Below, piece by piece: positions 12,831 to 64,000 of a stretch of 64,000 nucleotides of DNA. A program made the translations under genes and the position numbers. This stretch comes from Takakia lepidozioides (lineage: Eukaryota; Plantae; Bryophyta), in NCBI GenBank assembly GCA_030704615.1, contig CM060733.1:53506001-53570000 (forward strand). The letters are read 5' to 3'. A model generated the notes under the pieces. The model had not been told where the DNA came from and did no database searches. It worked only from the letters and a program-made list of their open reading frames with translations. Positions within the stretch are counted from its first letter, which is position 1; every line of letters starts with the position of its first letter.

Positions 12831-12989
12831 ATTGATCATCGCTCTTATCGCACAGGTCTTATTTATAAAGAAATGTGACCCGGTTCGGTTTCACCCTTCC
12901 ACATGTGCATTTGGTAGATGACATGCGATTCAACTGAAGCCACCATCTAACTTTTGAATTCATCATGTTAAGAACTGGAACTGGGAGGT

Positions 12990-17160: not shown

Positions 17161-17688
17161 ACTTTGGGGTTTTGTGACAGCCATATGTGGATATGTACTC
17201 TCAACCAGTTCTTGATAAATTTCCATCTGCTATGTTTGGATTGCCCTTTCCAAGCATTTAACATTGGTCTTTGGTAGCAAACACCGATTCATGAAGTAAA
17301 TCTTTCAGCCACTTGTATGGGAAGTATTACCCATACAAGCGTGAATGCACCGGATCCAAATCTGCAAGTTAGGGTAAGTTCTATTGATTTGCCAAAAGTA
17401 CATGTAACACTGTGACAATGCGGGATTCCCATTCGGCAAGTGATCTCATTGCCGTGAAGGCCGAGAAGAGACTAGCAAGGCCGACAACTTGAGGTTATGC
17501 AACCCTTTGTGCATGCTTGCGAAGACACTAAATTAGAGGGGGGTGGGCTGAATTGGAGGGAGAACTGGAGCTTGGTTCTCAATCTTGCATGAACATTTGG
17601 ATTGCTAGGTTAAAGCTGTTGCTTTTCCTTTTGAAGCAGTGTACTCAGTGGTGTAACTTGCAGTGTTATTGCAGACGATTCGCCTAGG

Positions 17689-37280: not shown

Positions 37281-39140
37281 ACATCATTTTAAAGTAAATA
37301 TGGACAAAAGGATGAAATCTGGACATCTGTTAAATAATTGTAAATAATTAATAAATGGAAAAAAAATACTATATTCAGTATTAACAATGCATTGAAGCTT
37401 AAAATTTTGGATTTTTCCGGATTGGTCCGAAAAGTAGCATCGTCCTTTGCAAAATAAATGACAAGCAAGACACCTATGTTGAATTTGAGGAGAATCTGAT
37501 CGCTCATGAGTATATTCACGGAGGGGAGATCTCCCGTGCACTCGATAGGTAGTTTCTCGCATCTTACGTGAAACGAATCATTCGATTACTACATGTCAAC
37601 GGTGAGAAAAGATGAGAGGAGCTTTCCCGTGAAAACGTAACAAATGCATGTCAATATCATATAGAAAACAAAGTAAGAGCTTTCAAACCACAATGGGTCG
37701 TGACTCAAAATTATTGGTAGAAACACTGGAATAATGTTTTTGAATTATTGAAACTTAAGGGATAGAAAAATCTTTGTCACATTGAGGACAAGAATTAACA
37801 AACGAAATGCATTGAACCAACAAATACAAGGTCAGATACCATGTCAAATACAATTTCAAATACAATGTCAGCTTGCTGCAGGTGCTTTGAGACTCCCCCC
37901 ACCAGGGGAGATCTCACGTGCTCAATACGAGAAGCGTCGAGCAGTCAAATCAAAAGAACATAAGATCTAGAAACATTCACATGAACTGATCATCCAGAAA
38001 TTAAAACTGTAAGGTAAGACAACAGTTATTTGTCACCCTCCGAACACCAAATAAGAATCCAGGAAATGCCGAACAGACGTCGAGACATAGAAGGGGAGAC
38101 CTCCCGTGCTACAACTGAAATCAATAGCACAATCACGAAAATACAATTTAGAACGTCGGCGTCATAAGGCGCCACCGTTAAAATCGGAGTAGTGAACGAC
38201 ATTCCGCAAGGGAAGATATGAAGGTTTTGGACCAGACAAAATCCTCATCATCTTCACAAAATGAAAATATTTACGAATCCTTACTATATTTGACAATGAG
38301 CTCTAAGAAAAATATAATAATCATGATCGGAAATAGTCAAGTCACTGTAGCATGGGACATCTCCCGAGCACTATGTGTAAGGGAGAAAACCATCAACCAC
38401 CATGGGAAATTGGCAGTTCGACATACGAAATGCGTGGAACTGTTAGACGGAAACAAATGGATTGCGATGCTAACAGAGGCCTCCTACCAACACATATTAG
38501 TTTTCCATTGTGTGAGGAATAGGACCCATCAATGATTGTGCACATTATAGCGAGTCAGGTGAAATTTGCTCTCCAGGATTGTGAGATCCCTGGTATTCAT
38601 TGAATCTCTTGTGTTTCCAATTAGGCTGTCTTCTTTGAACCTAAATCAATATGCAGAAAGAGTGCAGTTGCATCTCCAGAGTGAGAGAGCCGCAATGTTT
38701 GTATGAACTGAATATCATCGTATGGCTAAGAACCTGTTGTGATTTCAGGTGCGTTACACACAGGGAAAAATGTACAACCATTCACATCCACTGGCCATTC
38801 AAACATTCAAAAATTTGGAGATCAGAACAAAAGCTATTTGTCCGCAGATAAAAAACAAATCCAGTAAATAATATTAAAAAAACAACGTGACATACCACGG
38901 GAGACCGCCCGTGTTACACCTGAAAATCAGTAACAACATCGCGAGGATATAGTTTACAAAGTCAGATTAAGAAGGGGCCACCGTTGAAATAGACACATAA
39001 AAGTACATTCCACTAGGGAAGAAAATACGATATTCGGACCACGACATATCCTTATCAGATAACGAACCAAATTGGGACTCAACGAGCGCTATGGTGAATG
39101 AGAATATTAATCATGTCAGTCTGCAATAGTCAAGAATCTG

Positions 39141-41873: not shown

Positions 41874-44800
41874 CTATGTCTGGGTCACTACATGTATCAC
41901 TGTCTTCATCACAACTTCATCTTCGCCAAGGGTTGGCTGAACATCATCACCACGTATACGGGGTGCTCGGAGGTACAAGGAGGCCACCTGCTCTGGAGTA
42001 ACCGGTACCGCTCGGCTGCATGTTGGGCCATCAGTAACCACAGTCTCCTCTAGTCTTTGTGGGGCTAACAATCCTTCCACTTCCGCCACATCATCATTAT
42101 CAATTGATATGTCGCAGACCACTCTACGTGCTCGGGGGCTCTTCTCCAGGACGACTTTCCACCCTGGCTCCTTCACACAATCAGAAAAAAAACACTTGAT
42201 CAACCTGGCCAGGAAACACAAAAGGTTGCTCAGAAGGTGGAAGCATACGGTTAAAATTGACAAGTGTGAAGCCAGCATCATCCTGCTTCATTGACATAGG
42301 TTGACGACCCACGCGACTCGCCCGTACCCACGAACACAAAAACACTATAGGCTGTGTTTGGCCATAGTCAATTTGCAAAATCTCCCTTATAAGACCCACA
42401 TATCTTGTAGGTTCCTCCATGTCATTGCCTGAATTGTTGGTAATGGGCTGGTGCTGGAAAACAGATGAGACTCCACAATCAAAAGACACCATACTTGTTG
42501 TGTTCATGCCGGGGGATGTAACCCTGTAATGGTTACCATACGCTGTCATACTCTTGAATGACAGGGCAGTAAATGATGGAGGCCTTGAAAGATCCAGTAA
42601 TTCCTCACGTGTTGTAGGATCAAGCCCATCTGATTGAATTGAGAGATGATCCCGTACACCTTGAGGGAGCCAAACAGCAAATGGAGGACAAGGATGCAAA
42701 TCAGGAGGGTACTGAATTGCCGTGGGATTGCTCATGCCTTCCAGCCCTTGCTCCTCACGAAACAAGCGTCGTCTGGCTTCTATCCGTGTGGACTCTGCTT
42801 CATATATCCTGTCACAATCCGAGGGTCAGCCAGGAGATTGACAGAGGTGGCGTGGGAGATTTGAAAAGACGCCATATGCCAACTAATGATAAATGACTAA
42901 AACTTGGAAATCTGAATGTCAATGAAGTAGATTTCTTACCCCAACATGACTGATAGACGAGGATGGTTCTGAATGATGTACTCATGTACAATATCACACA
43001 GGTCATTCAATTTTCGGGCTTTAGAACTTCCTTCCACAACTTCACGTTCCACAGATTCTGCCTCATCTGCATCCCACACCCTTCGTACACTTCCATCAAA
43101 TCCTGCCATATACTCTGTGCAAAAACCCAATGCTTCTTCAAATTGGTATCCTTCTGCCATGCTCCCCTCGGGCCTTGCCATGTTTCTTACGTAGCCCTTC
43201 ATATCTTTCATTGCCCGCTCCATGGGGTACATCCAACGAGATGCTACGGGCCCGCATAAGTACAACTCATCCACTAGGTGAACAACCAGATGTGTCATCA
43301 CATCAAAAAATGATGGTGGGAACTCCTTCTCTATAAGACACAGAGTGAGAACTGCTTCAGTTCTCAATTCCTCATACTCTACAGGATTCACCACTTTTGC
43401 ACACAACTTCTTAAATACACGACATACTCGCAAAATGGCCCTTCGAGGACCACTTGGCATGAGCCCACGGATAGCAAGCGGTATAATTTGCTGCATGAGC
43501 ACATGATAGTCATGTGATTTCATGCCTGACAACTTCTTCTTCACCACATGCTTTTTGAAAGCTGATGCGTAGCCTGTTGGCACTTTCAAGTTCTGCACAA
43601 TCTCCAGAAAGACTTGTAACTCAGCCTCAGTGAGGACATAAGGGGCAGGAGGCATAATTAACGTATCTGCTCTGTCAGGATCACGTTGTAGCCACAATTC
43701 CGGGCGCATCCCAAGTAGCTCCAAATCACGGCGAACTTTCAATGTGTCTTTCTCACCAAAGATAGTTTTAATAATATTTTCAGCCAAGTTCTTCTCGCAA
43801 TGCATTGCGTCAAACGTGTGGCGGATGAGGAGACCCTACAAAATGAACACATAAGCAATTGAGCATTTACTCATCACAATTTAAACAGAAAACGCAAAAA
43901 TGTACACAGCCAATTTAAAGGCCATGAAGGAATTACCTCCCAATAAGGTAAGACATATAAAATTGACAATCGCTTAACTCCATGAGTTTTTGCTGGGTCT
44001 GTCCTGCTATCTGGCGTCCCTCCGTTTTCCACCCATGCAGTGCGAGCTGTTGCAAGGTCCTTGATTTGTGTTCCAGTCTGCGTTTTTGGAGGAGTTCCAT
44101 GCTCAGTAGCGCCATTGAACATTCTTGACCTTCTATATGGATGATTGCGGGCCAAAAATCTTCGGTGGCCTAGGAAAACAATTTTTCCACATGTGTGTAA
44201 CTGCTGTGAAGTCACCCCGGGTCCACAAGCTGGACAACCAGCATAACCTTTCGTCACTTGACCTGAGAGCAAGCCATATGCAGGGTAGTCATGGATTGAC
44301 CACATCAACACTGCCCTCAGTGTGAATTCGCGTTGACCACGAGGACGGGAAACATCATGAGCTGCAATCCCTCTCCATAGTTCCAATAGCTCTTCCACTA
44401 GGGGCATCAGGTAAACATCTACGTTGTCCGAGGTAACAGACTCCTTACCAGGAATCAGTAGCGCTAACATGACAAAGAACTTTTGGTCATTAACCACGGA
44501 GGCAGATTGTAATTGACCAAGAGAACGGGCCATGTGCTCCAACTTGTGGATTGAGCTCGTAGGGATTTACACCGTCTAAGGCCAATCCAAATCGCAGAGA
44601 TCGTGGCTCTGCAGCAAAATCCGCAAATGTGGTGTCAATGTGTCTCCATGCTTTGCTATCAGCTGGATGTCGAACCAACCCATCCTGGCTCTTATGTCTG
44701 TCGTGCCATGTCATGAGGTTAGCGATCGATTTACATCGGTACATACGTTTCAACCTTGGAATGACAGGGAATTGTCGCAATACTTTCTTGGGCACACTTC

Positions 44801-46004
44801 CACGACCTGGAATGTAACGGGAACTGCGGCACACTGGGCAAATGTCTACATTCTCATACTCCCCACGGAAGAGTACACAACCACGCTCACAGGCATGAAT
44901 CATCGTGTACTGCAATCCCATCTTGGCAATCATGGTTTTTGCTTCATAGTGAGTTTTCGGCAATGAATTCTCTTTAGGCAAAAAACTCTTACGCAACAAT
45001 CCCAGAAGCTCATCCACAAATGCATTGGTGCACTTGTGGGTATGCATGCGTTCAGCAACGTCAAAGTTGCTTGCAGCCGGCTGATGGAGCACCCTTCAAA
45101 AAGTGGACATTGCGACGCTCGGAAGAGTTTATCATACTCGGGATCAACGTGCAGGTGAGCATTCTCATCAAATTCATTGTCTCCCGAATCGTCGAGATCA
45201 TCGTCATGATCGGCAAATGTGTGATCGGTTCCACCATGAATGGGGTCCTCTCTGTTTGCATCTGCAAAGATAAACGCTTCCTGCAATGCACGCTGCATTT
45301 CTACCTCCAATCCACCACTCTCATCTGCGTTCTCTGTGACATTGGGCTCCCGCTGTGCCGCAGGGCCTTCGTCTTCATCATCTGAATATTCACATCCCTG
45401 CATCCCAATAGTCATCTTGTGAGTGGACCAACAACGATGTGACACTTGTTCATATTATGACATAGGAGGCACGGCGACGTTGCAGTGATGCAGTCATATT
45501 TACGTATGTATCTTATGAATATACACCCAATCAAAACACGACATTTGTAACCATTGAAGTCATAGTTGCAGTCACTTACTTAGTCATATATGACTACATG
45601 ACTACACATGACCAATGAAAACACGACATGTGCATTAATTAAAGTGATAACGGAAGTGGCGTAGTCATACTCACGTCTGTATCTTATGACTTCTTGACTA
45701 CAATCACCCAACGAAATGTCGACATGTGGAGAAGAGGATCGTTGCATTCAAAATTCAAACTAAAGTGCTGAAGGGAAAGTGACGATCTTACCGGAAGAGA
45801 ACAGCGTTGGAGAAGAGGATCCCTCCCGTGTATCATGTAATGATTCCTCACTGTTTCCAACAAGAGTACTTTTCCTCCATGACACTCATCGCAGTTGCAT
45901 AACATTTTTGTATGCCCATTCCTTGTGGCATAAGCTTCTTCCATTCGCCATAGACGGTCATCTATTCTACGCCTACGCATCCGTTCGCCACCTGCACTGT
46001 ACAT
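41874..46004 (-). pseudogene. CACTA transposase (TnpD/TNP2-like; Transposase_21 and DUF4218-type regions), spliced and frameshifted
   Basis: Motifs: LCNCDEC, IHACERGCVLF..CPVC, RHPADSKAW, LALDGVNP, WSIHDYPAYG, GCPAC, FDAMHCEKN, GMKSHDYHV, FFDVMTHLVVHL, RWMYPMER, EGSMAEGY, EQPFVFPGQVDQVFF. Intron at about 43838-43935; frameshifts near 45050, 44540 and 42940. Confidence 0.92.
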
Positions 46005-46574: not shown

Positions 46575-49076
46575 TTTGTGCAGGCTTGCGGGAGCGAATC
46601 GCCCTCGCAAGCCACGCGCTCCAAAGGAAAAAGGTAGGGATCAAGGTCCTGCAAGGCAAAGTGCCAGACTGAAGACGATGAAGACTACGATTCTGCATGA
46701 GGGCTCTTCTGAGGACGATGAGGACGATCCACTCCTCCCACGCCAGTGCGAGGCGAGTGCGTCGTCGGCGGATGCCACGGCAAGCCGAGGAGAACATGCC
46801 CATGCTCATGTCGCAGGACAAAAACGCCCATCATCTACACTACGAACACCTTCTCCGTCTGTGAGTTATAGTTCTTCACAATGACCATGATTCTAATTAT
46901 GTATGTTTTTGGTAAAATCACGAAGAGATAGGGTATGTCTGTCAAGACAGGGAAGTTGGACAATGCAGGGGTCAGCCAAGGCACAATCACAAATGATTTC
47001 CACTAGACAAGTTGAAGTGCCAAAGGCATGATGTCAGGCCAATGTAGACTTCAGGTGTGTTCAAATTCTTTGCCCCATGAAACCAACGTCCTGGTACTAA
47101 GCTACAATGGCTACTTATAGAGATACTTGGGTTACTTATGCACCCAGAATATCAGTAAAACTTGGAGGATACTTCTCATGGACCCATCAGGTTTGTCCAT
47201 TTGAATTCTTGCTATGGATTTCAGGAACACCCCATACCTAAGAGGGCTAAAAAATGTACTGGGAGGACATCATTGGGGCCAATCAAATTTGGGAGATTTA
47301 CTGCCCAAGATCATACTGAGTTTTGGGTAATTTTGTCCTTACAAATGATATGTGCTTCCAGTTTGTTTTGCCTAAATTCAAGGATTTGCTGCTTGCTGCC
47401 TATATGTATGTGTAATCACCCACATTGTACTGGGGGAATTTCTTTTCAGGGCAAGCACAAGCGCACTGGATCCACGATCCCTGCTGCTAGCAATGGAGAT
47501 GGCACCCACAAGAACGCAGGAGGTGGCCCTAACTCTCCCAACGTTGTGGGTTTGGTGCCACCAATACCCCCACCTTATTATGGTATGCCTCAGTACCCAC
47601 AGTCTGGCACTCAGTATGGTCAGGGTCAATATGGTGCTCCTCCATATGGGCAGTATGGCCAGTATCCTCCTCCACCATATTTGCCACCCCCTAATAGCTA
47701 TGGGGGTGGTAGGCCACCGGAATATCCTCCTGCTTATGGACAGTATGGCCAGTATGGTCCTCGGCCTTCTGGCCAACAACCATGGCCACCAGTCCCTACT
47801 TGGCAGGATCCTGCTTTGAATTCTCCTGAGCGCACGGAGGTCTCTGAAGGAGGGGAGGGTGTCGTTTCAATGAATGATAGAACCAATATTTTAAGGAGGG
47901 CTAATAGCTCAGCCAAAATTGAAGCTGCCAAGGTGAAGGAAGAGAGAATAGCTGCAAGTCTTCCTCCCACGGTGATTTTGACGAACCTCAAAGGAGCCCT
48001 GTATGGTCAGACCCGGAATGTATGGCACGCTGCCCTTAAAGGACAGGCTTATCGCAAGCTAGATTGTTCCCTTGCCATCAACAACCAACCTGATGAAGTT
48101 GTATACGAAATCAGAGATCACCTGGCTAAGCTATTTTCATATACGCCGCACGAGTTAAAAGACTTCCACCTAAAACAAACAATTGGCAGAATAATGAAGA
48201 GCCAGCGTTATGAAGCACACACTGTGTGGTTGGGTGGTAAGGGGAAACCCATTACTGTATCTGACGAGGTTTGGAACAAGCTTGTAAGTTACTGGCAGAC
48301 AGAGGTGTTCCACAAAGTGTCGGGCAACATGAAGAAGGCAAATGGTGCAATTCTGAATCCTACCAAGACTGGCCGTGGTGGGAAGGCAATGGTGGAAGCA
48401 CACTTGGTAAGTGGCATCATCACGACTCTGTATTTTGTTCCTCATTGAATTGCTATGTGTATATAGTCAGCCCTCACATTGCTTACTGACTTGTGGCATG
48501 GGTTTGTTTGTGGCATGGATTAATTTGTAGGAAACACTATCAGGGTGCCCTCCTACATTATATGAAATTCAAGAGGGTTCAGTGTCACGGTTGTCAGCTG
48601 GGAGTGACAGGCGGGTAAGTGTGTTTTCCACGTTTGCTAGAGTGGTTGCTGCATCATAGGTTGCTAGGGTTTTTTTCACGGCTTTTGGCCTGGGTTTTCT
48701 CTCCAATGGTTGTTCATGCTAGGTTTTTTTGGTTTGATTCATACTTGGGCAAGTTTTCATGGATTGGCAGGAGGGAAGTCTCGCATATTCTACAGTAGTT
48801 GGCAAGATGGATGGCTTGGACAAACTGGTGGAATCACAAGGACGTGACATGGCAGAATTAAAATTACAGATGCAGAGTATGATTGAGTACCAGAAAGCCA
48901 TTGTGACCAGATTGGGGATTAATCTACCAGGCGCAGGACCAGTGACATCTACGATGGATACGTCTGCTGTGACAGTATCAAAATGTTTGGAATCCCAATT
49001 TCAGACGGTAACTGGTGCTCACTCTAAGCCCTTATGTCTTCCTGTCACTGATGATCTTTTGAATTTGACCGAGTAG
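46575..49076 (+). CDS. CACTA second gene, TnpA/Ptta-like region (multi-exon; G/Y/P/Q-rich low-complexity segment)
   Basis: KPITVSDEVWNKLVSYWQTEVFHKVSGNMKKAN..TGRGG matches the plant Ptta/En-Spm (Transposase_24) pattern. It is followed by a coiled-coil exon (48759-49076) ending at a stop. Exon boundaries are approximate. Confidence 0.65.
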
Positions 49077-49112
49077 CAGCAGGATACAGGGAAGGCCAGC
49101 TGTGAGGTACAC

Positions 49113-49937
49113 GTGGAAATTCAGCCCTTGCCACGTACAAAGGCAGTAGCAGTCCAGGGGGCAATGGTGACAGAGCCGCCGGGCACACCGGATTCTGGTA
49201 TGCAGGTATGTGGGAATTTAGATGGGGAGGAAGATGCAGACGGGGACAAAACAAACAAGCAGGTTGCTTTAATTTCTCCTGCTCACATGTTGAAGCCAAA
49301 TGTCAGTTTACTTCCTGGACCAACGAGGAAGCATTTACTAATTCTGGACTTAAATGGTCTGTTATGTGAATCTTTTCATTCTGCTAATGGGCCTGCATCC
49401 CTTCCCAAAGGTTTTGTGGGGAAGATGGTAGTTTTGAGACCACGCTGTTATGACTTTTTGCAAAAGTGTTTTGATCACTTTGAGGTGGCGGTGTGGTCTT
49501 GTTGCCAAGCTCGCAACTTCTTCCCAATGGTGGACTATATTTTTGCAGCCCACACTAACCTGGTTTTCCAGTGGGATGCCCTTCACTGTGACGAGGATCC
49601 AGTCCTCCCATGCCGTAAGGGGTCTGATTCAAAGCCATTATATTTCAAGAACTTGTCTACAGTGTGGGCAGACTGGCCAGAATGGACTTATGAGGACACT
49701 GTTCTTGTTGACGACACACCAAGAAAGGTGGCAAACAATCCTCCCTTCAGTGGGATTTTTCCAGAGCTATGGAAGGTGCAACCAGATTCACCAACTGATG
49801 AGTATCTAACAGAGGTGTTGTGGCCTTTCTTGTGGAAGGCATCGAAAGCTGCCAGTATTCCCAAGTTTTTGGAGTCTCAACCTGTTTTCGGACAACAACC
49901 ATACAACACTGCTACTGTGAAGGTACAAACATTCTGA
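49113..49937 (+). CDS. FCP1-homology / NIF-type HAD phosphatase domain inside the CACTA
   Basis: RKHLLILDLNGLL, LRPRCYDFLQKCFDHFEVAVWS, FQWDALHC, KPLYFKNLSTVW, TVLVDDTPRKVANNPPFSGIFP. The ORF is uninterrupted. Confidence 0.88.
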   Translation: MEIQPLPRTKAVAVQGAMVTEPPGTPDSGMQVCGNLDGEEDADGDKTNKQVALISPAHMLKPNVSLLPGPTRKHLLILDLNGLLCESFHSANGPASLPKGFVGKMVVLRPRCYDFLQKCFDHFEVAVWSCCQARNFFPMVDYIFAAHTNLVFQWDALHCDEDPVLPCRKGSDSKPLYFKNLSTVWADWPEWTYEDTVLVDDTPRKVANNPPFSGIFPELWKVQPDSPTDEYLTEVLWPFLWKASKAASIPKFLESQPVFGQQPYNTATVKVQTF

Positions 49938-50686: not shown

Positions 50687-51289
50687 TCAGTATTGCACTG
50701 TTTAACAGACTTCTTGATTCTAATAGCACTAGAACATACTAGCTACAACAATTCAGCCCATGTGTGGGCTTGCTTGTTTTTGGCTGGGCCTTTTGAGGCA
50801 TGGATTTTTTTACCTTGTGGCTTTTGAGGTGTCCATTGGGATAATGGTCTCATTTGGATTTTTGTAATGTGATTTATAGGGCTTGTATTGCCCTGTAGTT
50901 GACTATTTTCATTCTCCTTGTGGTTGATAGTATGCAGGAGGGATCCATTCTATTTTCATGTTGGAATTTCACCATGTAATGAAGATTTTAAATCATTTAA
51001 TTCACTTCATTTTAAATAATAATATTAAAAATAATACCATTAAAAAAAATCCAAGGCTGCAATCTCCCTGTTCTTTTAAATATTAAATGAAAACTAAAAA
51101 TTAAAATATGAACATTAAAATATAAACTATTTCGGAAAACAATCTTGATGACACGTGGCATCACTCTTGCTCAAACCAGAACACGTGGCAGTATATGACA
51201 CGACATTCTTTATCCATATTTTCACCACGTGTAAAGATCCGTAGTCATATATGCTAGTCATATATTTTGTCTGTGTGCCACATGTCACA

Positions 51290-51612
51290 TCTCAAGTGCA
51301 ACAGGTGTCCCGCTAATCTCTCTCCATGTAGACATCCCTGTAGTCATATGAGCGAGTCATGTAGTCACCACGTGTGAAATCTGCCATAGCACACGTGTCT
51401 CGCTAGTGCCTCTCCATGTAGGCATCACTGTGCAGACATGTAGTCATATGATCATGGCAAGAAGTCGTGACATGTCAAATTCACAGTGACGCACGTGTCC
51501 ATCCGTCGCCTCTCCATGTAGGCATCACTTTGCAGACATATAGTCATATGATCCCTTGACGAATGCATGACGTGTCGCTTGCGCAGTGGCGCACGTGTCC
51601 CGCTGAAGCCTC
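51290..51612. repeat. Tandem subterminal repeats of about 90-105 bp in the CACTA right arm
   Basis: Three units of CACGTGTC...CTCTCCATGTAGGCATCACT...TAGTCATATGA. A fourth unit is split and resumes at about 52120-52170. Confidence 0.8.
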
Positions 51613-51684
51613 GCTCAACATCCGACTCGTGGGGGTGGGACCACGCATGCACAAACCCAAGGTGGATTCCCACCTGCAAGTCTG

Positions 51685-52130
51685 TTGGATGGCAAGATTG
51701 TCGGAACAGAAATCAGGGAAGAGGAAGCAGAATATCTGGACAGAATGGAACTCGCTTTGGGAACACCAGAGGGGCAGGTGGAAGGAGATGAATTATCGTG
51801 TGACGGAGTAGATAGTGTCACGGAAAGAGTGCAGGAAGATATGTGGTCGAATTACACCTTGAGCACGTTTGAGACCTGTGATGTGACTATTGGAGCATGG
51901 GTGGAGAATGCAGAAAAGCCATTGTACACAGGTCTTTCCTGTCCGTTAATTTCCCCTACGCGCAGATGTGATCACAGGGGCTTGGATACTAAGTATCTGC
52001 AGCGGCAATGGGTGCCATTAGATTGCCCGCTGTCATGCCCACTGGACGGCAAGAAGCTCTTGCAGCAGCTGCAGAATCAGACAGTGTTAATTGTTGGTGA
52101 CTCTGTCAGCTCCACCTTTGCTGAAGCTCT
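51685..52130 (+). pseudogene. Captured TBL/PC-esterase (polysaccharide O-acetyltransferase) gene fragment
   Basis: CDVTIGAWV..PLYTGLSCPLI....C..RGLDTKYL..QWVPLDC (PMR5N-like) and LLQQLQNQTVLIVGDS (GDS motif). It is truncated before the DxxH motif. Confidence 0.85.
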
Positions 52131-52569
52131 CCTACATGTAGGCAGCGCTCAACAGACAATGTAGTCATATATTAGTCATATAGTTGTGACTGCAACCCTC
52201 TCTGCAGGAGGACTCCAGGTGCCACGCAAGCAGTCATGGATATGACTTGCAAAACGTAGTCCTAAAGACTAGTCGCTATGACAGGGTTTTTTTCACTACA
52301 GAGTGATGTAGTCATGAACGCATATAAGACTGAAAAAATAGTCATATGTGAAGTCATAAAAACGCTCATCTGTTGTAGTGGTTCAAATCGCTAGAGATAT
52401 AGATGTTCAGAAATTGAAAGTTTCAAATGGTCGACACAGAAAATTCAAGGTCAACTTCTGATTGTGAAAGGAGCTCCCACAAAATCCTGGCAATCACCAA
52501 TAAGATCAACATTAACACATATTGTTGTCAAATTAGCATGGGAGATCTCTCGTGCACCTCTGTACACTG

Positions 52570-55500
52570 TGCTCAAACAGACTCACTTTGATCGTTCGCA
52601 GCATATAGAGTTGCTTTCGCTTTAACTGCTTCGGCCTTTCCAATACGTCTAGAGCTCCACTTGGAGGTGTTCTTCCGAGGTCGCATTGTCTACACCACAC
52701 TGTTCGTATGTATCCACTTTGGTGGATCAGATTCATTGAACTCCCAAGCTTTGTCCCAACAGTTTCTATACCTATCCACGTCCTCCGCTGCAACACCTTT
52801 AGGTCTCCACCACTCCAGAAGGATTGGGTGATTGCAATCTAGAGTGTCCATAATGTGACATGATCACGAGTACATGAGATGTCTTTAAGCTGGCGCGAGT
52901 TTTGAAAAATATATTTTTTGACCGTCGGACGAAGTCGATCCAGACCGTCGGCCAAAAGTACCGTGTCAAAACAATATGGGCGGGCTTTTCAAAAAATAAA
53001 AATAAAAATAAATAAACGCAAATAAAAAATAACGAAATTCTCAAATTTAATTCATCTATGCCCTCAACCTATGGGAAATGCGTGTTTTTTGTGAAGGAAG
53101 TTCTTGTAAATCTATGTTTTTCACTTAATATAAAAATAACTAATTTCTATGCTCTTCAAAAGTCCCTAACATTTTATGGACTACATATTTTAGTGTAAGA
53201 TAAGGCATTCTAGATTCCTCAAAATGGGGGTGATGTGTGAGTCATTTTTTATAGTGGCATTGAAAATTGACCAAGAACAAAGTACATAATCATCAGATTA
53301 TGGACTATGACATTTTACTAGGGACTTTTAAAAAGTCCTTAACTTTCAATATACTTAGTATTTTGAAATGAAACTTGAAAGAGTGAGTAAAGCCTCTAGT
53401 GCATATTATCCTTTAGAGTCCTTTATTCAAATATTCTATTCGATTGAAGAGAGTGAAAATTTATACCATCAATCTATGTGCAGGAAAAACTGTGTTGTGA
53501 CAGCAAAAAATGGACATGGTAGGTTGCAACGACCCGACTTGCCGATATCTCTTATCTAAACGGTCACGAACAACATCAGAGATTGCCACACCCATCCAAA
53601 CTGGATATGTCTCTGTGTCTGGTGGTCGAACAAGTACGAAATTTCCAATTTCAATATCTTTGAATGGGTTCATCGGCTCTTTAGGTCTCTGACTCTTTGG
53701 CCCACAATAGGGATCCAGCTGGTTGCGATCTTCCTCCTCTGACTCCTCCTGACTCTCACATTCAACCCTAATTCCATCTCTGTCATGGTTATCTTTCCAC
53801 AGAGTCGAAGGCCAAAACCCCTCTTCCAGCTTGTCCTTTGGCTCAGGCAATGGCTTACCAAGTTCAAGAAGAACATCCTTCCAATACTCATCGTAGTTAT
53901 TCATGATATTTTCATAGTTCTTGTCGAGATCCATCCCAAGTCTCCAGAATTCGCGGTACTTCGAAAGGCCATTTACAATACTGGCATTTTTTTCCCTGGC
54001 GTCTGGCTTTATTTCCCAAATAGGCTGCAGTGGAACAGGTTCCGGGACCCCCTGGGGTAGCAGGAGAGACCTCTTGTCCTCAGCAATCTTCCACATTTTG
54101 ACTGCACCCTGCTTCGGAAGCCAATTAACGTTGGTTGCTGATTTATTATACTTCATTACAGGCCAACCGTCACAATCCACATAGAACTTGAAGACGTGCA
54201 TTTCAGATGTGCCAATTAGCGCATTGCTCCCATCAATAATGTATCCTTCCACAAACTTCTTGAAGTCTGCGACCTCTTGAATCAGTTGAGGAATAAATGA
54301 CAGGTTTTGAGACTCCATAAAGAGGCGCATGAGATCCGGAAGGATATATGTGCTCTTCTGTTTCAACTTCTTCGACAGATAACTAAAGTATGCATCAATA
54401 TCCTCGTGGGTGTGACCAACCATCAGGATTCCAAGATGGATATCTTCAAAAACACCTCTCGGGCCGTCAAGAGTGATAAAAAAGCAAGCATCCAACGATT
54501 TTTGTTCTCTCTTGAAGAATTGTCCATTTGCAGGTATAGTCGACGGGGTAATGGCTTGGCTCGAACAGGGCCTTGGGATACCCTAGGCTTCAGTGCTTTC
54601 TCACATTGAGACTTTTCCTTCATTAGAGTTTCGAAAAAGGAGTTCTGCATTGGATGATCAAAAATTTCTTTTGAGTCTCGACACGTGGGCTTCTCAAGAG
54701 CGCGAAGACAACGAGCCAAAGAGCTGATAGTCAAGTTAGGATCATTTGGCCAGAACTCGTTCATGAACTGAGCATAAGCACCATCACCATGACCATGAGT
54801 CACCATACATGTTAGAGATATAGGTAGTTGACCGAGAGACTAGATGTCATCTTGTTTGTTACGAGGAGCCGAGGCAACGCAGTCTTCGAGTGATCCATCT
54901 TATCGTGTATAATATACAGAAACGCCTCACCCATCATCGTTGATTCATTTCGCCAACTATGATAAAGCCTGCGACATGACTCATGATGCTTCAAATGTCT
55001 CTCAAATTTCCTTTTGTGCTTTCTCTGCTCCTCAGTTCCACTGACTGACTTCTGGATAAGATCTTTGAACATCTCACAATCTGTGCATTTCGCGAATTTT
55101 CCACCAGGTTTCCGAACCTCAACATTCTCAAAAAGTTTCAACCGAATTCGGCTAATTCCAGACTTCGACAATTCCTTCAAGCCCATTCGTTTGTTCGCCT
55201 GATCCAATTGTCAACAATATATAGAGTTGGTATACAATTAGGTACAGGAGACCTCCCGTGGAGATTGAAATTGAGATTAAATATTCCAACATCTACATCC
55301 AAGAGATATGAAAATTTGATAGATGCAGAAAGAACGACAGACACAAAATTTCGTTCTTAAATAGATGGACAAAATCGCTCCGAACGATCCATCAATGGAC
55401 TATCGGTTATTATGCTAACGATTTGATATCGACTATTGGCACACTTAGCAGAATGATTACGGGAGGTCTCCCGTGACATACGCTCCTTGAAAGTAGAAAA

Positions 55501-56402
55501 ATGTTTATAGAGTTAGAATCAGATTGGGTTGGAAAGCAGTATCCAACCTCATTGGACAGTCTGTTAAGCTCCTTCCAATGCATCTCCACCGGCAACAACT
55601 TCAGAACATCTTGCCTTCCTTCTCCGATACCTCTCATTTTATGAGGCATGAGGTCACTGTTTCTGGAAATCAGCGATAACAAATTTGCCTCGGCCTGCAG
55701 GGTTTTTGCTCGGGGTTTCTTCATTCCTTTGTTTTCATGCATTGACGAGATGTATCCATCATTACTCTTCCTCTTGTATCCATGGTACGTTGACCTACCG
55801 ATCCTATGGATTGTCCACCGCGCCTTCTCACAGACCTCAACTCCTCCCATTGTAAGGTAGGCATGATGACCATAACCTGGTAGTCGGTGTAGTCATCGTG
55901 GGACGTCAAACCCTAACTCTCTCTTTGCATCAAAAGAAGATGCCAAGAACTTACTCTGGATAGCCTTAGTTTTTTCCCAGCTGAAGTGTTGACGACAGTT
56001 TCGAGCACAACAGCTCACAGAGCTTAATGCTTGAATTGACTCTGAATTTAAGAGTCGGACGGAGTTCTTATCTCCCTTTCGAACTCGTTTCAAACATTTA
56101 TACTGCGATTTCTTGACTCCTTCGAGGTGGTCATCCTCCGTGTCTGACTCATAAAACTTTGTGAGCAACTCTGATAGTTTTTGGCCATCTTGAAGTTTTG
56201 TATGTGTAAGCCGTAATTTCGTCATGGTCATTAGCAAATCCTGAGCTAACCCAGAGATAGCTGTAACAATTACACCGACATGCTCCTCCCCAAGATTTTC
56301 ACCGAGAATAACTTCGTCAAGTAGACACGCCACAACCCGTCCCTCAGCGATGACGTCCATCTCATCATTGAGAAGATTGCACATCTGATTACGATCATAC
56401 AT
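52570..56402 (-). pseudogene. Sola1-like DDD transposase pseudogene
   Basis: CCARNCRQHF, VCEKA, FAKCTDC..H. Putative catalytic triad: IIHDKMD / LYLQMDNSSRENKN / MVGHTHEDIDAYFS. Intron at about 55210-55547; C-terminal piece (WWRP..YRNCWDKAW) at about 52570-52815. Frameshifted. Confidence 0.7.
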
Positions 56403-56462
56403 TGTGCCACACTAACGACTAATCTGGAGATAGAAGTCAAGAACCAAGCTGAGAGATGTATA

Positions 56463-58278
56463 ATGGCGGAGACAGAGTCAATGGAGCAGGGGAAACTCAT
56501 TGCTGACATGAAGGCTACTATCTGTCGCAATGAGGATACCATTCAGCAGTTCCACCAGGTTGATGTCCAGAAGGACAGGTGCATCTTTGAGTTGCAGCAA
56601 ACCATCACAGTACGGGACAATGAACTATCTGTGAGTGAAAAAGCTTGGAAAGAAGCTGCCTATGCAGCTCTGGTTGAGCCTCATGCAAAGCGCATGGAGA
56701 GTTTACAACAGCAGTTGGAAGCATACCGGCTCAAGGAGGAGCAGGATCTCTGTGGTGTTACACAAGATTGGTGGATAATTATCTTTTGCAAAAGTGGTTA
56801 ACACAAGGGCCAGTGGAAGGGAAAGCACCAAGAAAGCTCACCCAAGACGAGATGAATTATCTCAGGCTACTGGGTGCAGAACATTGCCACAACCACTATA
56901 GACAATGTCTATAGTCGGATAGCTGAGTTACAGGAGGATATAGAAGGGCTGCAGACTCAAGTGGATGACTTGAGCTCCAACATTGACAAAAGGGCCTTTG
57001 TTCCTGAGGAACAGCTCATGGCTACTTATTTGCACGCAAAGACTTTGATTTTCCAATCTTCAGCACAGGAAATGCAGGATTTGCCAACATCAAGAAGGAC
57101 TGTGGCAACAACATCACAACAACCACACCAGGTCGACAGTGTTGATACCATGGCACTCCAGCAATCACTGTCTGAGGTTTGGGGTGATGTTTCTTTTAAT
57201 CCACCTACTACGCTTGCTGCACTTGAATACAATCGGGCTATGATTCAACCCTTCAACCAAATTCCCATTGTTATGGATTTGGCTTGGAAAGAATTCAGTC
57301 CTCTAGAGTCTTTGGCACACTATTACCAGATTATGCGCATTTGGTTGCCAGTGGCAACTCGGACTAAAGTTCTTCCAACTGACAGACCCATTGAAGATCA
57401 CCATTTTGCGCGGTATTGGTCTGAGGCAGAAACCATGCTGAAGGAATTAATTGCCTTCCAGATTGTTCATGGATTCATTTACACCAAGACCAAAGAGGTA
57501 CCTAGTTTGGTCATGGGTTGTGGACTGTATTATGTTGCTTGTTTTATTTCACGCTATCACATTGAGCAGCAGATCAGTTTCAGACTTATTCTAGTGGGGA
57601 GCATTGGACGTTACCTTCAGTTCCACCACAAACATATCTGTATGATGTAAGGATCATGCTTCAGAAGGATCCCCAACTCCATTCTTGGTTTACTTTTGCT
57701 CTGGAGAACTTAGCCAAGGAGAACTTGGGTCTTGACCACATTTCTTCCAAGGGGCATGAAGCCAGGAAGTGGCTACACTTTTCCAAAGTCATTGACACAC
57801 CACTCAGCTATACAGATGATGAGCTGCGGGCATACACCAATCTTGCCCGGAAAAAGTTGACACAAGTCTTATAGTATAAGCTTCTAGACATGGTAGGCAT
57901 ACATTGTATGCCAGTCAGGATTCCTATAAAGCCACCGAAGGACAGGAAACAGTACGGCCAACGGGGGGAAGATGATTTGGATACTACTGGTTCTGTGGAT
58001 GGGAATTTTGACATGGCTGAGGATTATGCGATATAAATGGCGGAGAAGAAATGACAGGGATCTCCTATCCCTGAAAAATTACCTCCATATTAGCCTAAGG
58101 CAGGACAGTCAGATCCATCTAGTCGACAGTCATTCCCACCAGCCAGCGACATGGCTCGGGCTCACACACAGAGCCCTCCGAGGGACTCTCACCGGCAGAA
58201 GGGTGCTCGTTCACAAAGGTTTGCTGATCCTAAGCAGTAAACCGTGAGGACACGGTTTTTTGAGAGGGGGAGGGATAA
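56463..58278 (+). mobile_element. 3' part of LTR retrotransposon 3: degenerate coiled-coil extra ORF and polypurine tract
   Basis: Broken coiled-coil ORFs (56463-58040) are followed by the PPT GAGAGGGGGAGGGATAA (58262-58278), which abuts TGTT. Confidence 0.7.
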
Positions 58279-59250
58279 TGTTAGAGGGCTGTCTGGGACT
58301 TAGACAGTTTTATGGGTTCTGTGGGGTACCCTTAATTTTTGAGCAGACCTACTGTGGTAGACTCAGACCAATATAAACCTTAGGGGTAACAGACACAGAC
58401 CTTAGGGGTGGTAGACAGGCTTACACAGCCAGTCACAGCCTATCACAGTCTATCAAAGCCCGACATAGCCCGACACAGCCCGACACGGCCAGTCATAGCT
58501 CGGCACAGTCACAGCCCGACACAGCTTGGCACAACCCGTCACAATGTTCACAGGGAACGGTTATCATTGGCAGGGAACAACTGTGTAGGAACGATATCTG
58601 CAGAGGGAACGTGCATTCTGTCTTGGATGACAGTTAGTTAGTTAGGCGGTTAGAACAGCTTGCGGGTAGAATAGGCAGAGTAGCGACATGGAGGGGGTCA
58701 CTTCTTATAGCACTTGCTTGGACGTCACTTCGGAGATCACGTCTTGGACATCACTTGAGGAGATCAGGCGGAGAGCACGATCTTGGAGCACAAGGATGGA
58801 GATTACACAAAGGAGGAGATACGACGAGATGATGCTTGATTCATGCAAGCTGTAAAGATGCACTGTAGAGCAGATTAGAGACACCATGGCCTTCACTCAT
58901 ATCTCTTTACACGGTGTAAATATGAAATAGGAATCATATTAATATCTATCATGTATCAGGTTGTGGAATGAATGCTTGAGTAGTTGGAACATGATAGATT
59001 GCAAAAGCAATCTGATGCTTAAACCTAGATTGTTGGGTAACTTACTGAACATGAATGCAGGAAAGAATAGATATATGAAAGCACCCCATGATACACTAGA
59101 TGTAGGTCATGAGTGATTGTTTTGAGCGGGCTGAGTGCTTAGAGATTTCGAACTCTTTTATCTTGGAGTTTCCACCTCAGATAGCTAAGGGATGGGTGAG
59201 GAAAAGCCGCTCAACACAACTAAAGAACATGCATTTGCATTTGGTCAACA
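58279..59250 (+). repeat. 3' LTR of element 3
   Basis: It begins with TGTT directly after the PPT and has CACAGCC micro-repeats at 58420-58540. The candidate end is GTCAACA at 59250 (right end uncertain). Confidence 0.6.
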
Positions 59251-62200
59251 TTTACTTACAGATCTCAGTGGGTATCACTGCAGACAGATACGGACTATTG
59301 GTTGTTGTCCGATGCAGGCATTGCCATCACCAATCTGTGGAGAAGTGATCGTATTCAAAGATTTTTAGCCCAGTAGGTTTCATTAACGTTAGTTTCAGGA
59401 AAACAATTTCTGAAGTACATACATGTAGGGTTCAAAGGGTGTATACTTGGTCTTCATGGCCGATAAATGTTGTATTGCAAGTTTTCAATTGAGTAAAATT
59501 GTGACTATTTCAAGCATATTACCACCATGTTGAATGTTTGTTGCAGGACTTTTTGCAGAAATTGTTTTAATACTAAATGAACATTAGGGTGAAAAAAGTC
59601 TTAACATGACCAAAGCATTATTAATGTCATACAAGGGATGACACACATTTCATTCATCTTCAATTGGAGCGATTATGTGATGTGAGGAGTGTCAAAATGA
59701 TGTCCAAGTGATTTGCACTAATATGACATGTAATTTGTCATTTATTCGTGTAGATTTAGTTATAAATTCCACACGACAATTGCATTCAACCTTTGTCCAA
59801 GTATCGTACGAGGCCAACGTACACGGATTTCGCACGTTACCGATGTTGAAATCGGACGCATCACATTCGTGCATTAAGCACACGGAATTAGGGTTTGTTA
59901 ATAAGTTGGATTTGAGGAGTTTCTTAAGGGCTGTTTGGAGGATTATTGGAGGTCATTGGAAGCCATATTGGGTAGGCAGGTGGAGCCATTGTGAGGGCTG
60001 GTTGGAGACCTTGGAGGCCACTAATTGGCGGGCGCCTAGGGCCTTTTCATGGACTGTTTGGAGTCCAAGTTTGCAAACTTCTTGAGCCTCGATGGGTCTA
60101 TATGAGGGGCTGATTGAGGGCAGATTTCAGAAGTTCATGACAATAATTTGAGGGAACTTGAGAGTTATTTGAGAGGTTCTTTAAGGTTAGTCTTATCTAT
60201 TGCTCGAGCAAGAGTGAGTGTGAAGATAGGAGGAGTAATGGGATGAGAGCATTCTGGGCTTAGAGATTGCTTTAGCTTCCCTTCTCTATAGTCTTCCATC
60301 ATTCTTGTAGGCCAAAGCTTTTCCGTAAGCGGAGGCAGAGCTAGTTTGGATAGAGACTTGGTCATCTTGTAGGTTTATTGCAGCTGCAAGGAGGTCGATT
60401 GATTTAAGGTGTGGGAGGTGTTGTTGTTTGAGTTTCCTGTGTTTGGATCCTCTTCCCACACATGCATGCTTGACTGTGCGCCATGCTAGTTTGGTTTGGG
60501 CGCTTGCTTTTATAGGTGGTTGTGCCGGAAATATTGTGGCCGGCCAACCCTAGAGCGTGCTGTCGGTAGTGAGGCTGGGGTGATGACCAGCAGACCATCA
60601 TTGTTTCTCTTATGGTGAGGCTGGGTTGAAGACCAGGAGACCATAGGAGTGCCTGCGGTGGATACAGGTGGTTCAGGTTAGGAACCTAATATTCCAAACC
60701 ATAAGCCGCAACAAGTTCTCCGGTTACCTTGTGGAAAGGGGGATTAGAGACAAGTTGATAGCCGGTTTGAGTGTGAGTTTTCATCACGGAGGCGCCACCA
60801 GTTGCTGAGGAGAGTGCCGGTACGAGCACCAGCGATACTAGTGGGTATACAAGATGAGGTGTGCGGTTTAGACCACCATCACCTTCAGTGTCTTCTGAGG
60901 AAGGTTCAAACTCAGAGTTAGGAGGATTCTCGCCGAGGGTGCAAACCATTTCCATGCCATTGTTGTGGGATACGATGGAGAAAATGTATGGAGCTACCAA
61001 GGGGCCACGTCGGTACTCTGGAGCTGTGGGCACCATGGAGCTTGATGATTTCATACAGGAGTTTGATAGTTGATGTGATTTGCAGCAGATGCGCAATCCA
61101 CAACTATTTACGCCTTTTATGGCGTGGAAGGGGCTGTTTCAACTCCTTGAGGGGCCGCCTATGGATGACTACCATGAGTTTAGGCGGGGCAATGAGGTGG
61201 AGATTGAGGAGTGACGACAATATTGGTCACCTGACTATGTTTCCATCACTAGAGGCACAAGGGCAGCGGCGACACCAGCAGCTACACCAACATCCCCAAC
61301 TGCAAGCACTAGTAGTGGGACAAGTAAAGATGGAGCTGGGAAATCCACTCAAGCTCCTGCTGTAGCACCAACACCCGTGCCTACCTTTATCCAAGTTGTG
61401 GAGTTCTTCGAGGAGTTAAAAAGAAACTACCAAGGAATAAGGACGGAAAAGTTGCAAATCTTGCAAGAGTTCCAGCAGAGGCCTACTGAGAGTTTGAGGG
61501 AGGCTTATACGCGCATGAGGCGATTGATAAATGAAAACCCAAGGGGTTATGGAAGCTCAAGCTGTCCAATTCTGGTATGGGATATTGGACAAGAAGCTGA
61601 GGAGAAGGGTGCGGGATGCAACTCTCCTACAAGTGGCCCAACCCACCTTAGCAAACGTGTTTTTGCTGGCAGAGCGGATAGAGCTCAATATGGTGGAGGA
61701 GCAAGTGGTCATGGTGGGGTTTGGTAAAGAGACATAACAAAGTGGGGCTCCTAGCTAATAACAACCACTACTACAACGTGCTCAAGGCAACAAGGGGGCT
61801 CAGGCGAAGAGCAGGGAAGGACAGAGAGGATCTCAATTGCAGAGGTCACTTCTTTCATTTTCAGGCCAACAACAGTCGAGTGTGATATGTTGGGATTGTG
61901 GAGGACCCCGTGTTAAGAGAAATTGCCCAGAGAGAGGCAAATGGCCGGCACAGGCACAACCTACGCAACTACAGTGTGGGCATTGTGGCAAGTATGGGCA
62001 TGAGGAGGCCCATTTGTTATGAGTTGCATCCTGAGCTATAGCTAGGCCAGTTCCAAGGGAACAATGGTGGCCGAGGACGAGACAATGTAGTCCAGAGAGG
62101 TAAATGAGGCAGAGGTCGTGGTGGAGGTCGTGGTGGAGGTCGTAACCAAAACCAAGGAGCACAGGGTTGAGGTCAAGGTCATAACCAAGGCATGGTGGAT

Positions 62201-62910
62201 AGGCTTGCCCAGCTAGAACAACGTCTTGCTACCATGGCCACTACTCATGTTGCACCAGCTTCAAGGCCTGAAGTTCAAGCCCCACCTGCACAACCTCTTA
62301 TGCCTAGGGAAGACCAAATTGGTATGGCCTTCATGTGTGGAGCCGCACTTGCATGACCATTGCATGTGGACTCTGCAGCTGCTGTCACTCGAGCAGCAAC
62401 GCGTGCTCTTGAGCCAAGAGGAGCGGATGTGGATTTTGATCCTCAAAGGGGGGAAGCAAGTCGACAAACAAGGCTTCCATAATCTTTCACATTGGCTGAG
62501 ATAGTGCCAACTACGCCATCGATGACACCCGCTCGCCCAAGCGTGTCAGAGGTAGAGCCACGAGTGCCATTGGGGAGAGTTGGTGTGGCTTAGGAAACGC
62601 CAGTGGGTGGTGCTGCAAAGCAAAGTGCAGCTAGTACATTCTGGGGGCGGCTACGACAATTTGCCAAGCTCCATTATTTTCTGCAATGACAATTGCAATT
62701 CCGGGGATTCGGCCAGCTGCTGTGTTCAGACTAGCAGCTAGACTCTGTGAGAGTGCTGATGCATTGGCACTATCTGCGGGGATAGCGGATAAGGTGCAGT
62801 GCATTGATACCTTGGATTTAAGGGGGATACAGCCACAGCTGCGCCATGACAAGCGACAGCTACAATGTGCCATGCTTGTTGCACACACTCGTCTGTTATT
62901 CGATGCAAAT

Positions 62911-63458
62911 TTCTAACCGTACCCCACAGTGGAATATGCACAGGCACATAAAGAAACAAATCAGCTTTGTATGCCAATTACTTGTCATCATCAGGTGATG
63001 GCCTATCATCCGCATGGCTATTGCCCTCCAAGAGCTCACCACTCCAAGCCACCACCCCTGAAAATGCGGCCAATGTGGACATTGATCATGTTCCTATGAT
63101 CCACCGCTACATTCCCAATAAACCGCATTGGGAGCAGTGCACGTCGACCATCTCTTGACTGCCATTCCGGCCTATAGGATGTCGTTTCCTCCCAAAAGTC
63201 CAGAGTAAATCCCATGGGGTATAACACAGCCCCACCAACAAGCACATCATAGGACATCGCGTCCCAAACCTGCAATTGCTGCTCTCCCCAATATCAATGG
63301 CTGTGTTCCCGAGTCCAACAAGACCCGCAGTGGCCTATACCTCTTCCCGGCTAGGCCACCCAACTGAAATACACCATCCTGATTGTCCACCAGAATTACC
63401 CCATGAGTCACCATACTACGCTCAATGGCTGGTCTAGCTGGCAACCCCTGACTCAGGG
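62911..63458 (-). pseudogene. Retroviral-type aspartic protease segment, inverted relative to its element
   Basis: LRVLLDSGTQPLILG and YDVLVGGAVLYPMGFTLDFW read on the minus strand. The segment is flanked by CAAAT (62906-10) and ATTTG (63459-63). Confidence 0.85.
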
Positions 63459-64000
63459 ATTTGTTTGCTAGACCTGTTTGGAGGCATGAACACTGGGCTT
63501 GCAGGAGTGTTGCAAGCAGGGATTAAAGTACGCAAGTACTTGTATGTAGAGAAGGATGAAATAGCTCGACGTATTTCTATGCGCCACATCGCCTTGCTCA
63601 CACACCGGTATCCTGGGTTGTTGTCTCTCTCAACAATTCAAGGGTATCAAAAGACTTTGCCAGTAGACATTACCCTACTAGGGGCGGATGATTTGGACCA
63701 GCATGGTTCCATTGACTTGGTGATAGCCGGATGGCCTTGCCAATGACACTCTCCTGTAGGTCATGGGAATGGCTTGCATGATGCACGATCGCATTTGTTT
63801 CGAGAGATGTTGTGAGTGTTGCGGGACTTGCAGACGAGACAAGTGCAACCTCTAGGCTATATGTTGGAGAATGTTCCACTCACGGGGGATTCTCGGGCCA
63901 AGTTTATGGCCAATGTATGTCAGGTGCGGTCTTAGATTAGATCGACAGTGCTATTAGATGCAGCAGCGGTGGGATCACGCGCGCATCGACCTCGATTGTG
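63459..64000 (+). pseudogene. C5 DNA cytosine methyltransferase domain (DNMT3-like), three in-frame stops, truncated by the window edge
   Basis: All motifs are in one frame: motif I ICLLDLFGG, II YVEKD, III DIT, IV DLVIAGWPCQ, VI YMLENV (63858-75), VIII DAAAVGSRAHRPRL. Stops lie at 63744, 63813 and 63933. Confidence 0.9.

Follow-up and report, generated by a model that had tools for sequence, protein, structure and literature searches.

A Gypsy-type retrotransposon family with a DNMT3-like methyltransferase in bryophytes, traced from a decayed copy in the moss Takakia lepidozioides

Described elements and the Takakia copy

Methylation is the main defence of plants against transposons. Some retroelements carry a C5 cytosine methyltransferase (C5-MTase, hereafter MTase) of their own, and the element treated here, located at the right end of a 64,000-nt stretch of Takakia lepidozioides DNA, is of this type. 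Its closest published counterpart is KnitGypsy-Dnmt3 of Klebsormidium nitens (de Mendoza et al. 2018, PMC5890265), compared by its description rather than by its sequence; no named Klebsormidium sequence was among the homologue and cluster matches. According to the parts of that paper available, KnitGypsy-Dnmt3 combines Gypsy domains with DIRS-like repeats in the order A-coding-B-A-B and with an intronless, unpermuted DNMT3-like domain under purifying selection, all of which are shared with the bryophyte family described below. It was reported from one alga in few copies, whereas the bryophyte family occurs in mosses and liverworts, and its DNMT is said to share an open reading frame (ORF) with reverse transcriptase (RT) and RNase H, whereas in the bryophyte family these lie in the same phase, parted by a stop codon in 45/47 loci. 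The available text describes neither the short A-ORF-B form nor the target duplications, the palindrome or the self-priming match of the bryophyte family; supplement included, it holds no mention of Marchantia, liverworts or PHD.

SymbioDIRS-Dnmt3 elements and EpiLTRs likewise bear C5-MTases, as far as the accessible portions of the sources describe them (PMC5890265; bioRxiv 10.64898/2026.05.21.726589). The SymbioDIRS-Dnmt3 enzymes methylate CG de novo in yeast (PMC5890265, text available); DIRS elements have a tyrosine recombinase and no target duplication, whereas the bryophyte relatives have an integrase and 4-bp duplications. The EpiLTR DNMTs are, in the preprint text at hand, sister to DNMT4 and accompanied by DAM and chromodomains, unlike the bryophyte family. 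The Chlamyvir/Tcn1 chromoviruses are also Ty3/Gypsy elements of algae and non-seed plants, but they carry a chromodomain after the integrase (Neumann et al. 2019, PMC6317226), and the available text of that survey mentions neither methyltransferase nor PHD. PHD fingers in turn are described as common accessories of Chlamydomonas transposable elements (PMC8557442, in part).

The window, i.e. the whole stretch analysed, covers positions 53,506,001–53,570,000 of CM060733.1 and cuts the element at 64000, after MTase motif VIII; RT, integrase, stop and element ends are described from relatives. The element in the window is almost certainly the decayed 5′ half of a high-copy Ty3/Gypsy-type moss retrotransposon. 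It belongs to a bryophyte Gypsy family of the KnitGypsy-Dnmt3 kind, which differs in host range and, judged by the published text available, in a PHD finger and a conserved stop. As a whole, the data are best explained by a DNMT3-like enzyme made in the Gag frame, many copies of which would enter each particle and methylate the complementary DNA (cDNA) of the element, and this reading is given a probability of about 0.6. The features of the window copy are the following.

59896–60780, plus strand: 5′ non-coding part (terminal repeat and leader), begins with TG; start plausible, inner boundary putative
60099: TATA-like box within the 5′ non-coding part
60975–61532, plus strand: Gag N-terminal part, 60% identity to Marchantia protein P0004, residues 1–183; 2 stops
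61537–62001, plus strand: Gag C-terminal part with CCHC-like zinc knuckles, frameshifted, 49% to P0004 185–342; 3 stops
61997–62869, plus strand: Gag-protease linker with several frameshifts, 42–43% to P0004 341–494 and 521–569; 6 stops
62870–63448, minus strand: inverted block with aspartic protease (LLDSGT and DVLVGG motifs) and part of the protease-MTase linker, located by tblastn of P0004 584–655, 708–758 and 771–840
63456–63998, plus strand: DNMT3-like C5-MTase, motifs I–VIII, cut by the window end, PF00145 E 1.4e-9, 66% to P0004 880–1060; 3 stops

The intronless frame at 63456–63998 holds motifs I, IV (GWPCQ), VI (ENV) and VIII in canonical order, as claimed for a C5-MTase in the initial annotation of the sequence, with the F of motif I at 63477, the motif IV Cys at 63738, ENV at 63867 and RAHRPRL at 63978–63998; stops interrupt the frame at 63744, 63813 and 63933. 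The PF00145 profile, which the same annotation had proposed to apply, scored 38.3 bits against a cut-off of 22, and a profile of nine relatives scored 263 bits (E 1e-81), with no match of E<1 on the shuffled window. The C5-MTase order is unpermuted, with motifs I–VIII in the window, IX–X in the relatives, and the catalytic Cys (IV), Glu (VI) and Arg (VIII).

Against solved structures, the full-length relative P0003 matched DNMT3A with E 6e-12, DRM with 1e-8 to 2e-4, and M.HaeIII with 4e-4. Its structural model (pLDDT 91.9) returned DNMT3A/B/C only among the Foldseek matches listed, with target-normalised TM scores of 0.82–0.85 in the top ten, and the nearest cluster in the ESM Atlas was a streptophyte C5-MTase cluster. 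The catalytic domain of animal DNMT3A/B (PDB 6brr, 6w89, 6u91) has the same fold, motif order and PCQ/ENV/AHRxR signatures, as well as motif IX–X similarity in P0003, but the identity is ca. 22%, and the element enzyme is without PWWP or ADD and embedded in a retroelement polyprotein. Sequence and modelled structure of the relatives, which match DNMT3A/B the best, thus make the enzyme family very probably one of DNMT3 type, as initially proposed.

Of 65 non-redundant copies, made up of 64 loci and the window copy, 64 had the catalytic Cys, and the ratio of non-synonymous to synonymous substitutions (dN/dS) in the MTase was 0.09–0.17 between lineages, with dS near saturation. In the algal-type proteins, Cys, Glu and Asn were invariant (169/169), and motif IV was often ECQ, not PCQ (Pro to Glu in 93/169). 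This conservation argues for selection on catalysis, with methyl transfer itself a prediction. The MTase trees (selected rows, LG+G4) comprised element-borne and viral enzymes only. In them, the window MTase joined sequences of Marchantia, Calypogeia and Sphagnum in a clade of 13 rows (support 100/99). Although the MTase tree suggested a horizontal transfer between Sphagnum and the liverworts, this is not claimed, as a moss-only clade was not rejected (p-AU 0.17).

Relatives, domain order and the conserved stop

A search among longer proteins returned 31 homologues of 45–68% identity, including 15 from Marchantia polymorpha, three from Calypogeia fissa and one from Sphagnum troendelagicum, and two Marchantia gene models also contained RT and RNase H. 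From a metagenome scan, 123 of 353 candidate stretches were confirmed and 80 loci were kept, of which L004 and L068, taken as representatives of the main family, grouped with the Sphagnum protein at 100/100. RT was located downstream of the MTase in 54 of the 60 loci with room for it, the contigs of the other 20 being too short on that side. Of the 71 loci that reach far enough upstream (9 contigs are too short), 65 have a protease on the same strand as the MTase, and none has it inverted. The order in the relatives was Gag-knuckle-protease-MTase-[TAG CAA]-RT-RNase H-integrase-PHD in one phase, which includes the protease-RT-RNase H-DDE integrase order of Ty3/Gypsy; in L036, Gag through integrase formed a single frame of 2163 codons with 2 stops. 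The PHD finger ends the integrase in L035 and L068 and was seen in 23 distinct loci by tblastn, in the place of Chromo, which gave no hit in the relatives scanned. Their scanned frames contained an rve integrase and no tyrosine recombinase.

The window element is hence a member of a land-plant Gypsy family with a DNMT3-like domain, as the initial annotation had supposed. That the window copy alone captured a fragment of host DNMT3 or DRM, or that the assembly is chimeric, is hardly credible and was rejected on the family-wide arrangement, which recurs in dozens of loci and three named genera. A rearrangement does lie right at the MTase boundary (inversion end 63448), and the whole stretch was spanned by none of the contigs listed; however, contigs of the runs holding the window stretch cover the MTase at repeat-level depth, and a DRM origin is opposed by the unpermuted motif order and the lower scores of DRM structures.

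No report of the family from bryophytes was found in a literature search that covered subscription journals thinly; the family may be mentioned in Repbase or in the supplement of a genome paper. A paper from 2025 and a preprint from 2026, in the parts available, still refer to these elements as 'streptophyte' only, and the accessible text of a Marchantia met preprint does not mention them. At least 15 annotated Marchantia proteins with the domain are products of the element, which bears on counts of host DNA methyltransferases.

A library-wide profile search resulted in 352 clusters at E<1e-30. Among the best 150 of these, RT or RNase H preceded the MTase in 64, RT followed it in 3, Gag or protease preceded it without RT in the protein in 13, integrase only followed it in 18, and 52 contained the MTase only. 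The named members of the RNase H-MTase-integrase-PHD type were the chlorophytes Haematococcus, Monoraphidium and Scenedesmus. With RNase H-MTase-integrase in chlorophytes and protease-MTase-RT in bryophytes, the domain occupies two positions in one broad clade. The chlorophyte-type group (P0085–P0337, e.g. P0095, P0251, P0304 and P0171) had the order RT-RNase H-MTase-integrase-PHD, some members with a Tudor-like or G-patch domain, and the literature search found no paper on this MTase group.

Among the matches listed from viral and prokaryote collections, only distant MTases were met (E 2e-18 or weaker), with the exception of L084. This is a 9285-bp, apparently intact and circularly assembled MTase-PHD Gypsy element within a cyanobacterial genome bin, likely a eukaryotic contig contaminating the bin. 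The same seems to apply to P0297, which comes from a bacterial bin.

Between MTase and RT, an in-frame stop followed by CAA was identified in 45 of the 47 non-redundant loci with the anchor, which span three divergent lineages. The stop is TAG in 27 and TAA in 17 of the metagenome loci, and TAG in L084. It lies ca. 100 codons past the MTase and 17 codons ahead of the WEP motif that precedes RT; at any other codon, the stop frequency was 26–29% at most. L036, with an MTase of 64% nucleotide identity to the main family, reads TAG CAA CCA, and L084 (50% protein identity) reads TAG CAA TCA, the conserved stop being in the latter the sole stop between open frames of 1355 and 1047 codons. The C-termini of several proteins from Marchantia and Calypogeia lie near this position.

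The MTase had initially been assigned to Pol, between protease and RT; the position stands, but in the relatives the stop parts Gag-protease-MTase from RT onward. The conserved stop and CAA after the MTase thus place the enzyme in the Gag frame; it is quite probably produced at the level of Gag, with RT-integrase likely requiring readthrough. No report of a conserved stop in such elements was found in the literature search, and a conserved stop that places the MTase in the Gag frame is new. In the available text of Firth and Brierley (2012, PMC3542737), UAG CAR YYA is given as the type I readthrough signal of tobamoviruses; the contexts of L036 and L084 fit it exactly, and the CAA CCC of Sphagnum-type copies does not. 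The stop of the bryophyte family also comes after protease and MTase, not right after Gag.

Alternatively, RT-integrase could have an RNA of its own or one produced by splicing, or its translation could reinitiate past the stop. Splicing would agree with the Marchantia gene models P0019 and P0026, which fuse the MTase frame with RT, presumably via predicted introns, but these are automatic predictions on decayed copies, and in all three lineages the frames stay in phase and the CAA after the stop is kept. Reinitiation would suit the Sphagnum-type family with its Met three codons past the stop, but L036 and L084 are without a nearby Met. Either route is considered unlikely.

Element ends and the proposed role of the enzyme

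In Sphagnum-type loci, repeat A (ca. 339 bp) opens the element and is followed by the ORF, a polypurine tract and repeat B (115 bp), after which comes either the flank directly or A and B again, giving the forms A-ORF-B and A-ORF-B-A-B. The ends are permuted, and neither two identical terminal long terminal repeats (LTRs) nor the ordinary second LTR expected in the initial annotation was found in the relatives. All nine loci with both ends, i.e. five short and four long forms (one rearranged), had TG..CA termini and a 4-bp target duplication with 0–1 mismatch; L004, the contig of which ends inside the repeat, was set aside. A-coding-B-A-B repeats together with Gypsy domains were present in L035, L064, L068 and L071. 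The B-A junction is a palindrome with a GACA-GC-TGTC core, also found past the polypurine tract of the divergent L084. At positions 1678–2014 of L001, repeat A was followed by unrelated sequence, not the usual leader, in a rearranged or truncated left end.

By eye, the relatives showed no primer site of tRNA type. The 11 nt that follow repeat A correspond to a site at A+167 to 169, ca. 31 nt past the TATA box, with 10–11 of 11 nt matching in 11 of the 23 loci scored, among which three pairs represent the same insertion. This match resembles the self-priming of Tf1/Tcn1, as Tcn1 is predicted to self-prime in the available text of PMC6317226.

For both integrated forms, we lean towards an origin from one-LTR or two-LTR circles of a B+A LTR, opened at the palindrome. 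A-ORF-B could also arise after insertion by B-B recombination, with only A-ORF-B-A-B made in replication by a templated, DIRS-like route. This would preserve the target duplication, and would agree with the A-B junction being identical in the three loci displayed and with the mirror form missing in 22 left ends. However, A-ORF-B was at least as common as the long form (5 vs 4), even though B has a length of only 115 bp; a DDE integrase and 4-bp duplications, with no tyrosine recombinase detected, disagree with the DIRS-like route; and the palindrome would still be required as the source of both ends. Recombination after insertion is therefore possible but doubtful.

In the Gag-frame reading, most ribosomes would terminate after the MTase, RT-integrase would result from readthrough of the leaky stop, and the stop predicts the stoichiometry, with the enzyme at Gag level. 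Reverse transcription would be self-primed, the true LTR would be B+A, and the integrase would open one- or two-LTR circles at the internal palindrome. Marking of the cDNA by the MTase would precede or accompany integration, and the PHD finger may help to choose the chromatin. Methylation of the element's cDNA is the likeliest function of the enzyme, and that cDNA is its main substrate is predicted at even odds.

The MTase might instead be freed from Gag and act in trans on chromosomes, where it would silence integrated copies in a self-limiting manner or remodel insertion sites together with the PHD finger. Expression at Gag level would give far more enzyme than one cDNA requires, slowed transposition and insertion-site chromatin effects are options raised by de Mendoza et al. 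(PMC5890265, text available), and the differences of the window copy from the family were mostly deamination-type changes (run X1: A>G 126, T>C 84, G>A 59, C>T 55). In contrast, host MET1/CMT/DNMT3 pathways, by textbook background, account for the decay equally well, and the chlorophyte relatives hold the domain between RNase H and integrase, tied to the replication machinery. Action in trans on host chromatin, the principal competitor of the cDNA reading, is regarded as improbable.

Several observations weigh against the packaged Gag-frame enzyme and its cDNA substrate. The MTases of the relatives are 47–69% identical to that of the window, and the stop, RT and ends are carried over from them to the window copy, in the 5′ region of which the best self-priming complement was 8–9/11, equal to shuffles. 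Regarding the stop, L048 is disrupted at the site and L075 has stops without CAA; most Sphagnum-type copies read CAA CCC, short of the full CAR YYA, and have the Met codon described above; and in P0108, P0116 and P0138 the MTase continues into RT in the same ORF without a stop, a shared ORF being seen also in the chlorophyte type. Random cutting of two-LTR circles should also yield the mirror form A-B-A-ORF-B, which was found in 0 of 22 left ends. Within the decayed Sphagnum-type family, dN/dS was 0.58 for MTase, 0.38 for RT and 0.64 for protease, i.e. constraint was weaker on the MTase than on RT, and the Klebsormidium enzyme gave no methylation in yeast, which its authors called inconclusive (PMC5890265, text available). 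CpG at the junction relative to expectation was 0.61–0.76 in L084, 0.05–0.14 in L036 and 0.18 in one MTase-less Gypsy element, so CpG depletion fails to separate self-methylation from host methylation.

Why a retrotransposon keeps its own methylase is a question that PMC5890265, in its available text, could not settle for the green-lineage enzyme, and the copies in Marchantia polymorpha bring it into a genetically tractable plant with methylation mutants. More tentatively, an ancient green-lineage Gypsy clade, from chlorophytes to mosses and liverworts, may have kept an active DNMT3, with bryophyte particles pre-methylating their cDNA and integrating via palindrome-opened circles; the RT tree, made without reference elements and with long, partial outgroup rows, is effectively unrooted. 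If true, bryophyte genomes would have acquired a de novo methylase through bursts of the family, independent of host DNMT3 and DRM.

Decay and surroundings of the window copy

The window copy is dead and makes nothing functional; its worth is as evidence of the abundance of the family in a further moss lineage. The Gag with zinc knuckle recognised in the initial annotation was recovered, as Gag and two CCHC-like knuckles aligned to Marchantia P0004 at 42–60%, and the Gag frame likely begins upstream of 60975. Pfam gave a sub-threshold Retrotrans_gag (PF03732) match only in the Gag region, and none in the window for the knuckles or protease pieces. A continuous gag-protease-MTase frame, as had been annotated, is contradicted: Gag and knuckles occupy three successive plus frames at 60975–62542 in alignment with P0004, the protease coding runs on the minus strand from 63447 down to ca. 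63105, and from Gag to MTase all three plus frames are used, with 15 stops in the homologous segments. The copy had been called dead for three stops, which are indeed those of the MTase frame, but with its 15 stops, frameshifts and inversion it is far more broken than that.

The inverted block has lost ca. 50 codons at 63263/63264 and roughly 35–40 codons at its right junction. Contigs of runs X1 and X2 connect 62868 with 63447 on opposite strands, and other copies in the species are therefore without the inversion, neither junction of which was bridged in window orientation by ≥31 letters in any contig listed. The inversion at 62870–63448 may be a biological rearrangement or an assembly error.

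An LTR had been set at 59896–60752. Its start fits the summed contig depth, which climbs from ca. 700 to over 13,000 across 59788–60155, including the bin that holds 59896, and which marks repeat nature only, not copy number; its end at 60752 is without support. No second copy of 59896–60752 was found within the 64-kb window, and the junction palindrome is absent from the window, as expected of a left end.

The host gene in these surroundings is represented by a choline-transporter-like exon (PF04515) at 17689–18819 on the plus strand (region 17635–18900), amid transposons. Its identity was 60% to Ceratodon, 53% to Sphagnum, 46% to Marchantia paleacea and 37% to a fern, and in a tree of 24 rows (the window exon and 23 of 45 matches) it grouped with mosses at 100/100, outside the Sphagnum and Ceratodon groups. 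By this exon, i.e. one gene only, the host is a moss, likely of an early-diverging lineage.

Two further Gypsy elements, likewise decayed and with no MTase detected, are located at 12972–14113 and 33376–37292 (plus strand), and a LINE (long interspersed nuclear element) remnant with an endonuclease domain at 19475–22703 (minus). Pieces of a CACTA-type transposase (Transposase_21, DUF4218, DUF4216) are at 42181–45454 (minus), with a weak Transposase_24 match at 47159–48448 (plus). Adjoining the CACTA pieces, an open frame of 286 codons at 49077–49937 (plus) has a NIF-like (FCP1/SCP) phosphatase domain (E 6e-15) and may be transposon cargo. A PMR5N / PC-esterase (trichome-birefringence-like) fragment at 51607–52164 (plus) is preceded by tandem repeats at 51230–51600. 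In the region 53461–57650, DUF7869 (E 8e-21) was matched in a frame of 373 codons, next to frames of no clear family on both strands; the region is probably another DNA transposon. Upstream of the element, a 10-bp tandem array of 10 copies and very high summed contig depth, at 58413–58542 and 59052–59235, mark separate high-copy repeats.

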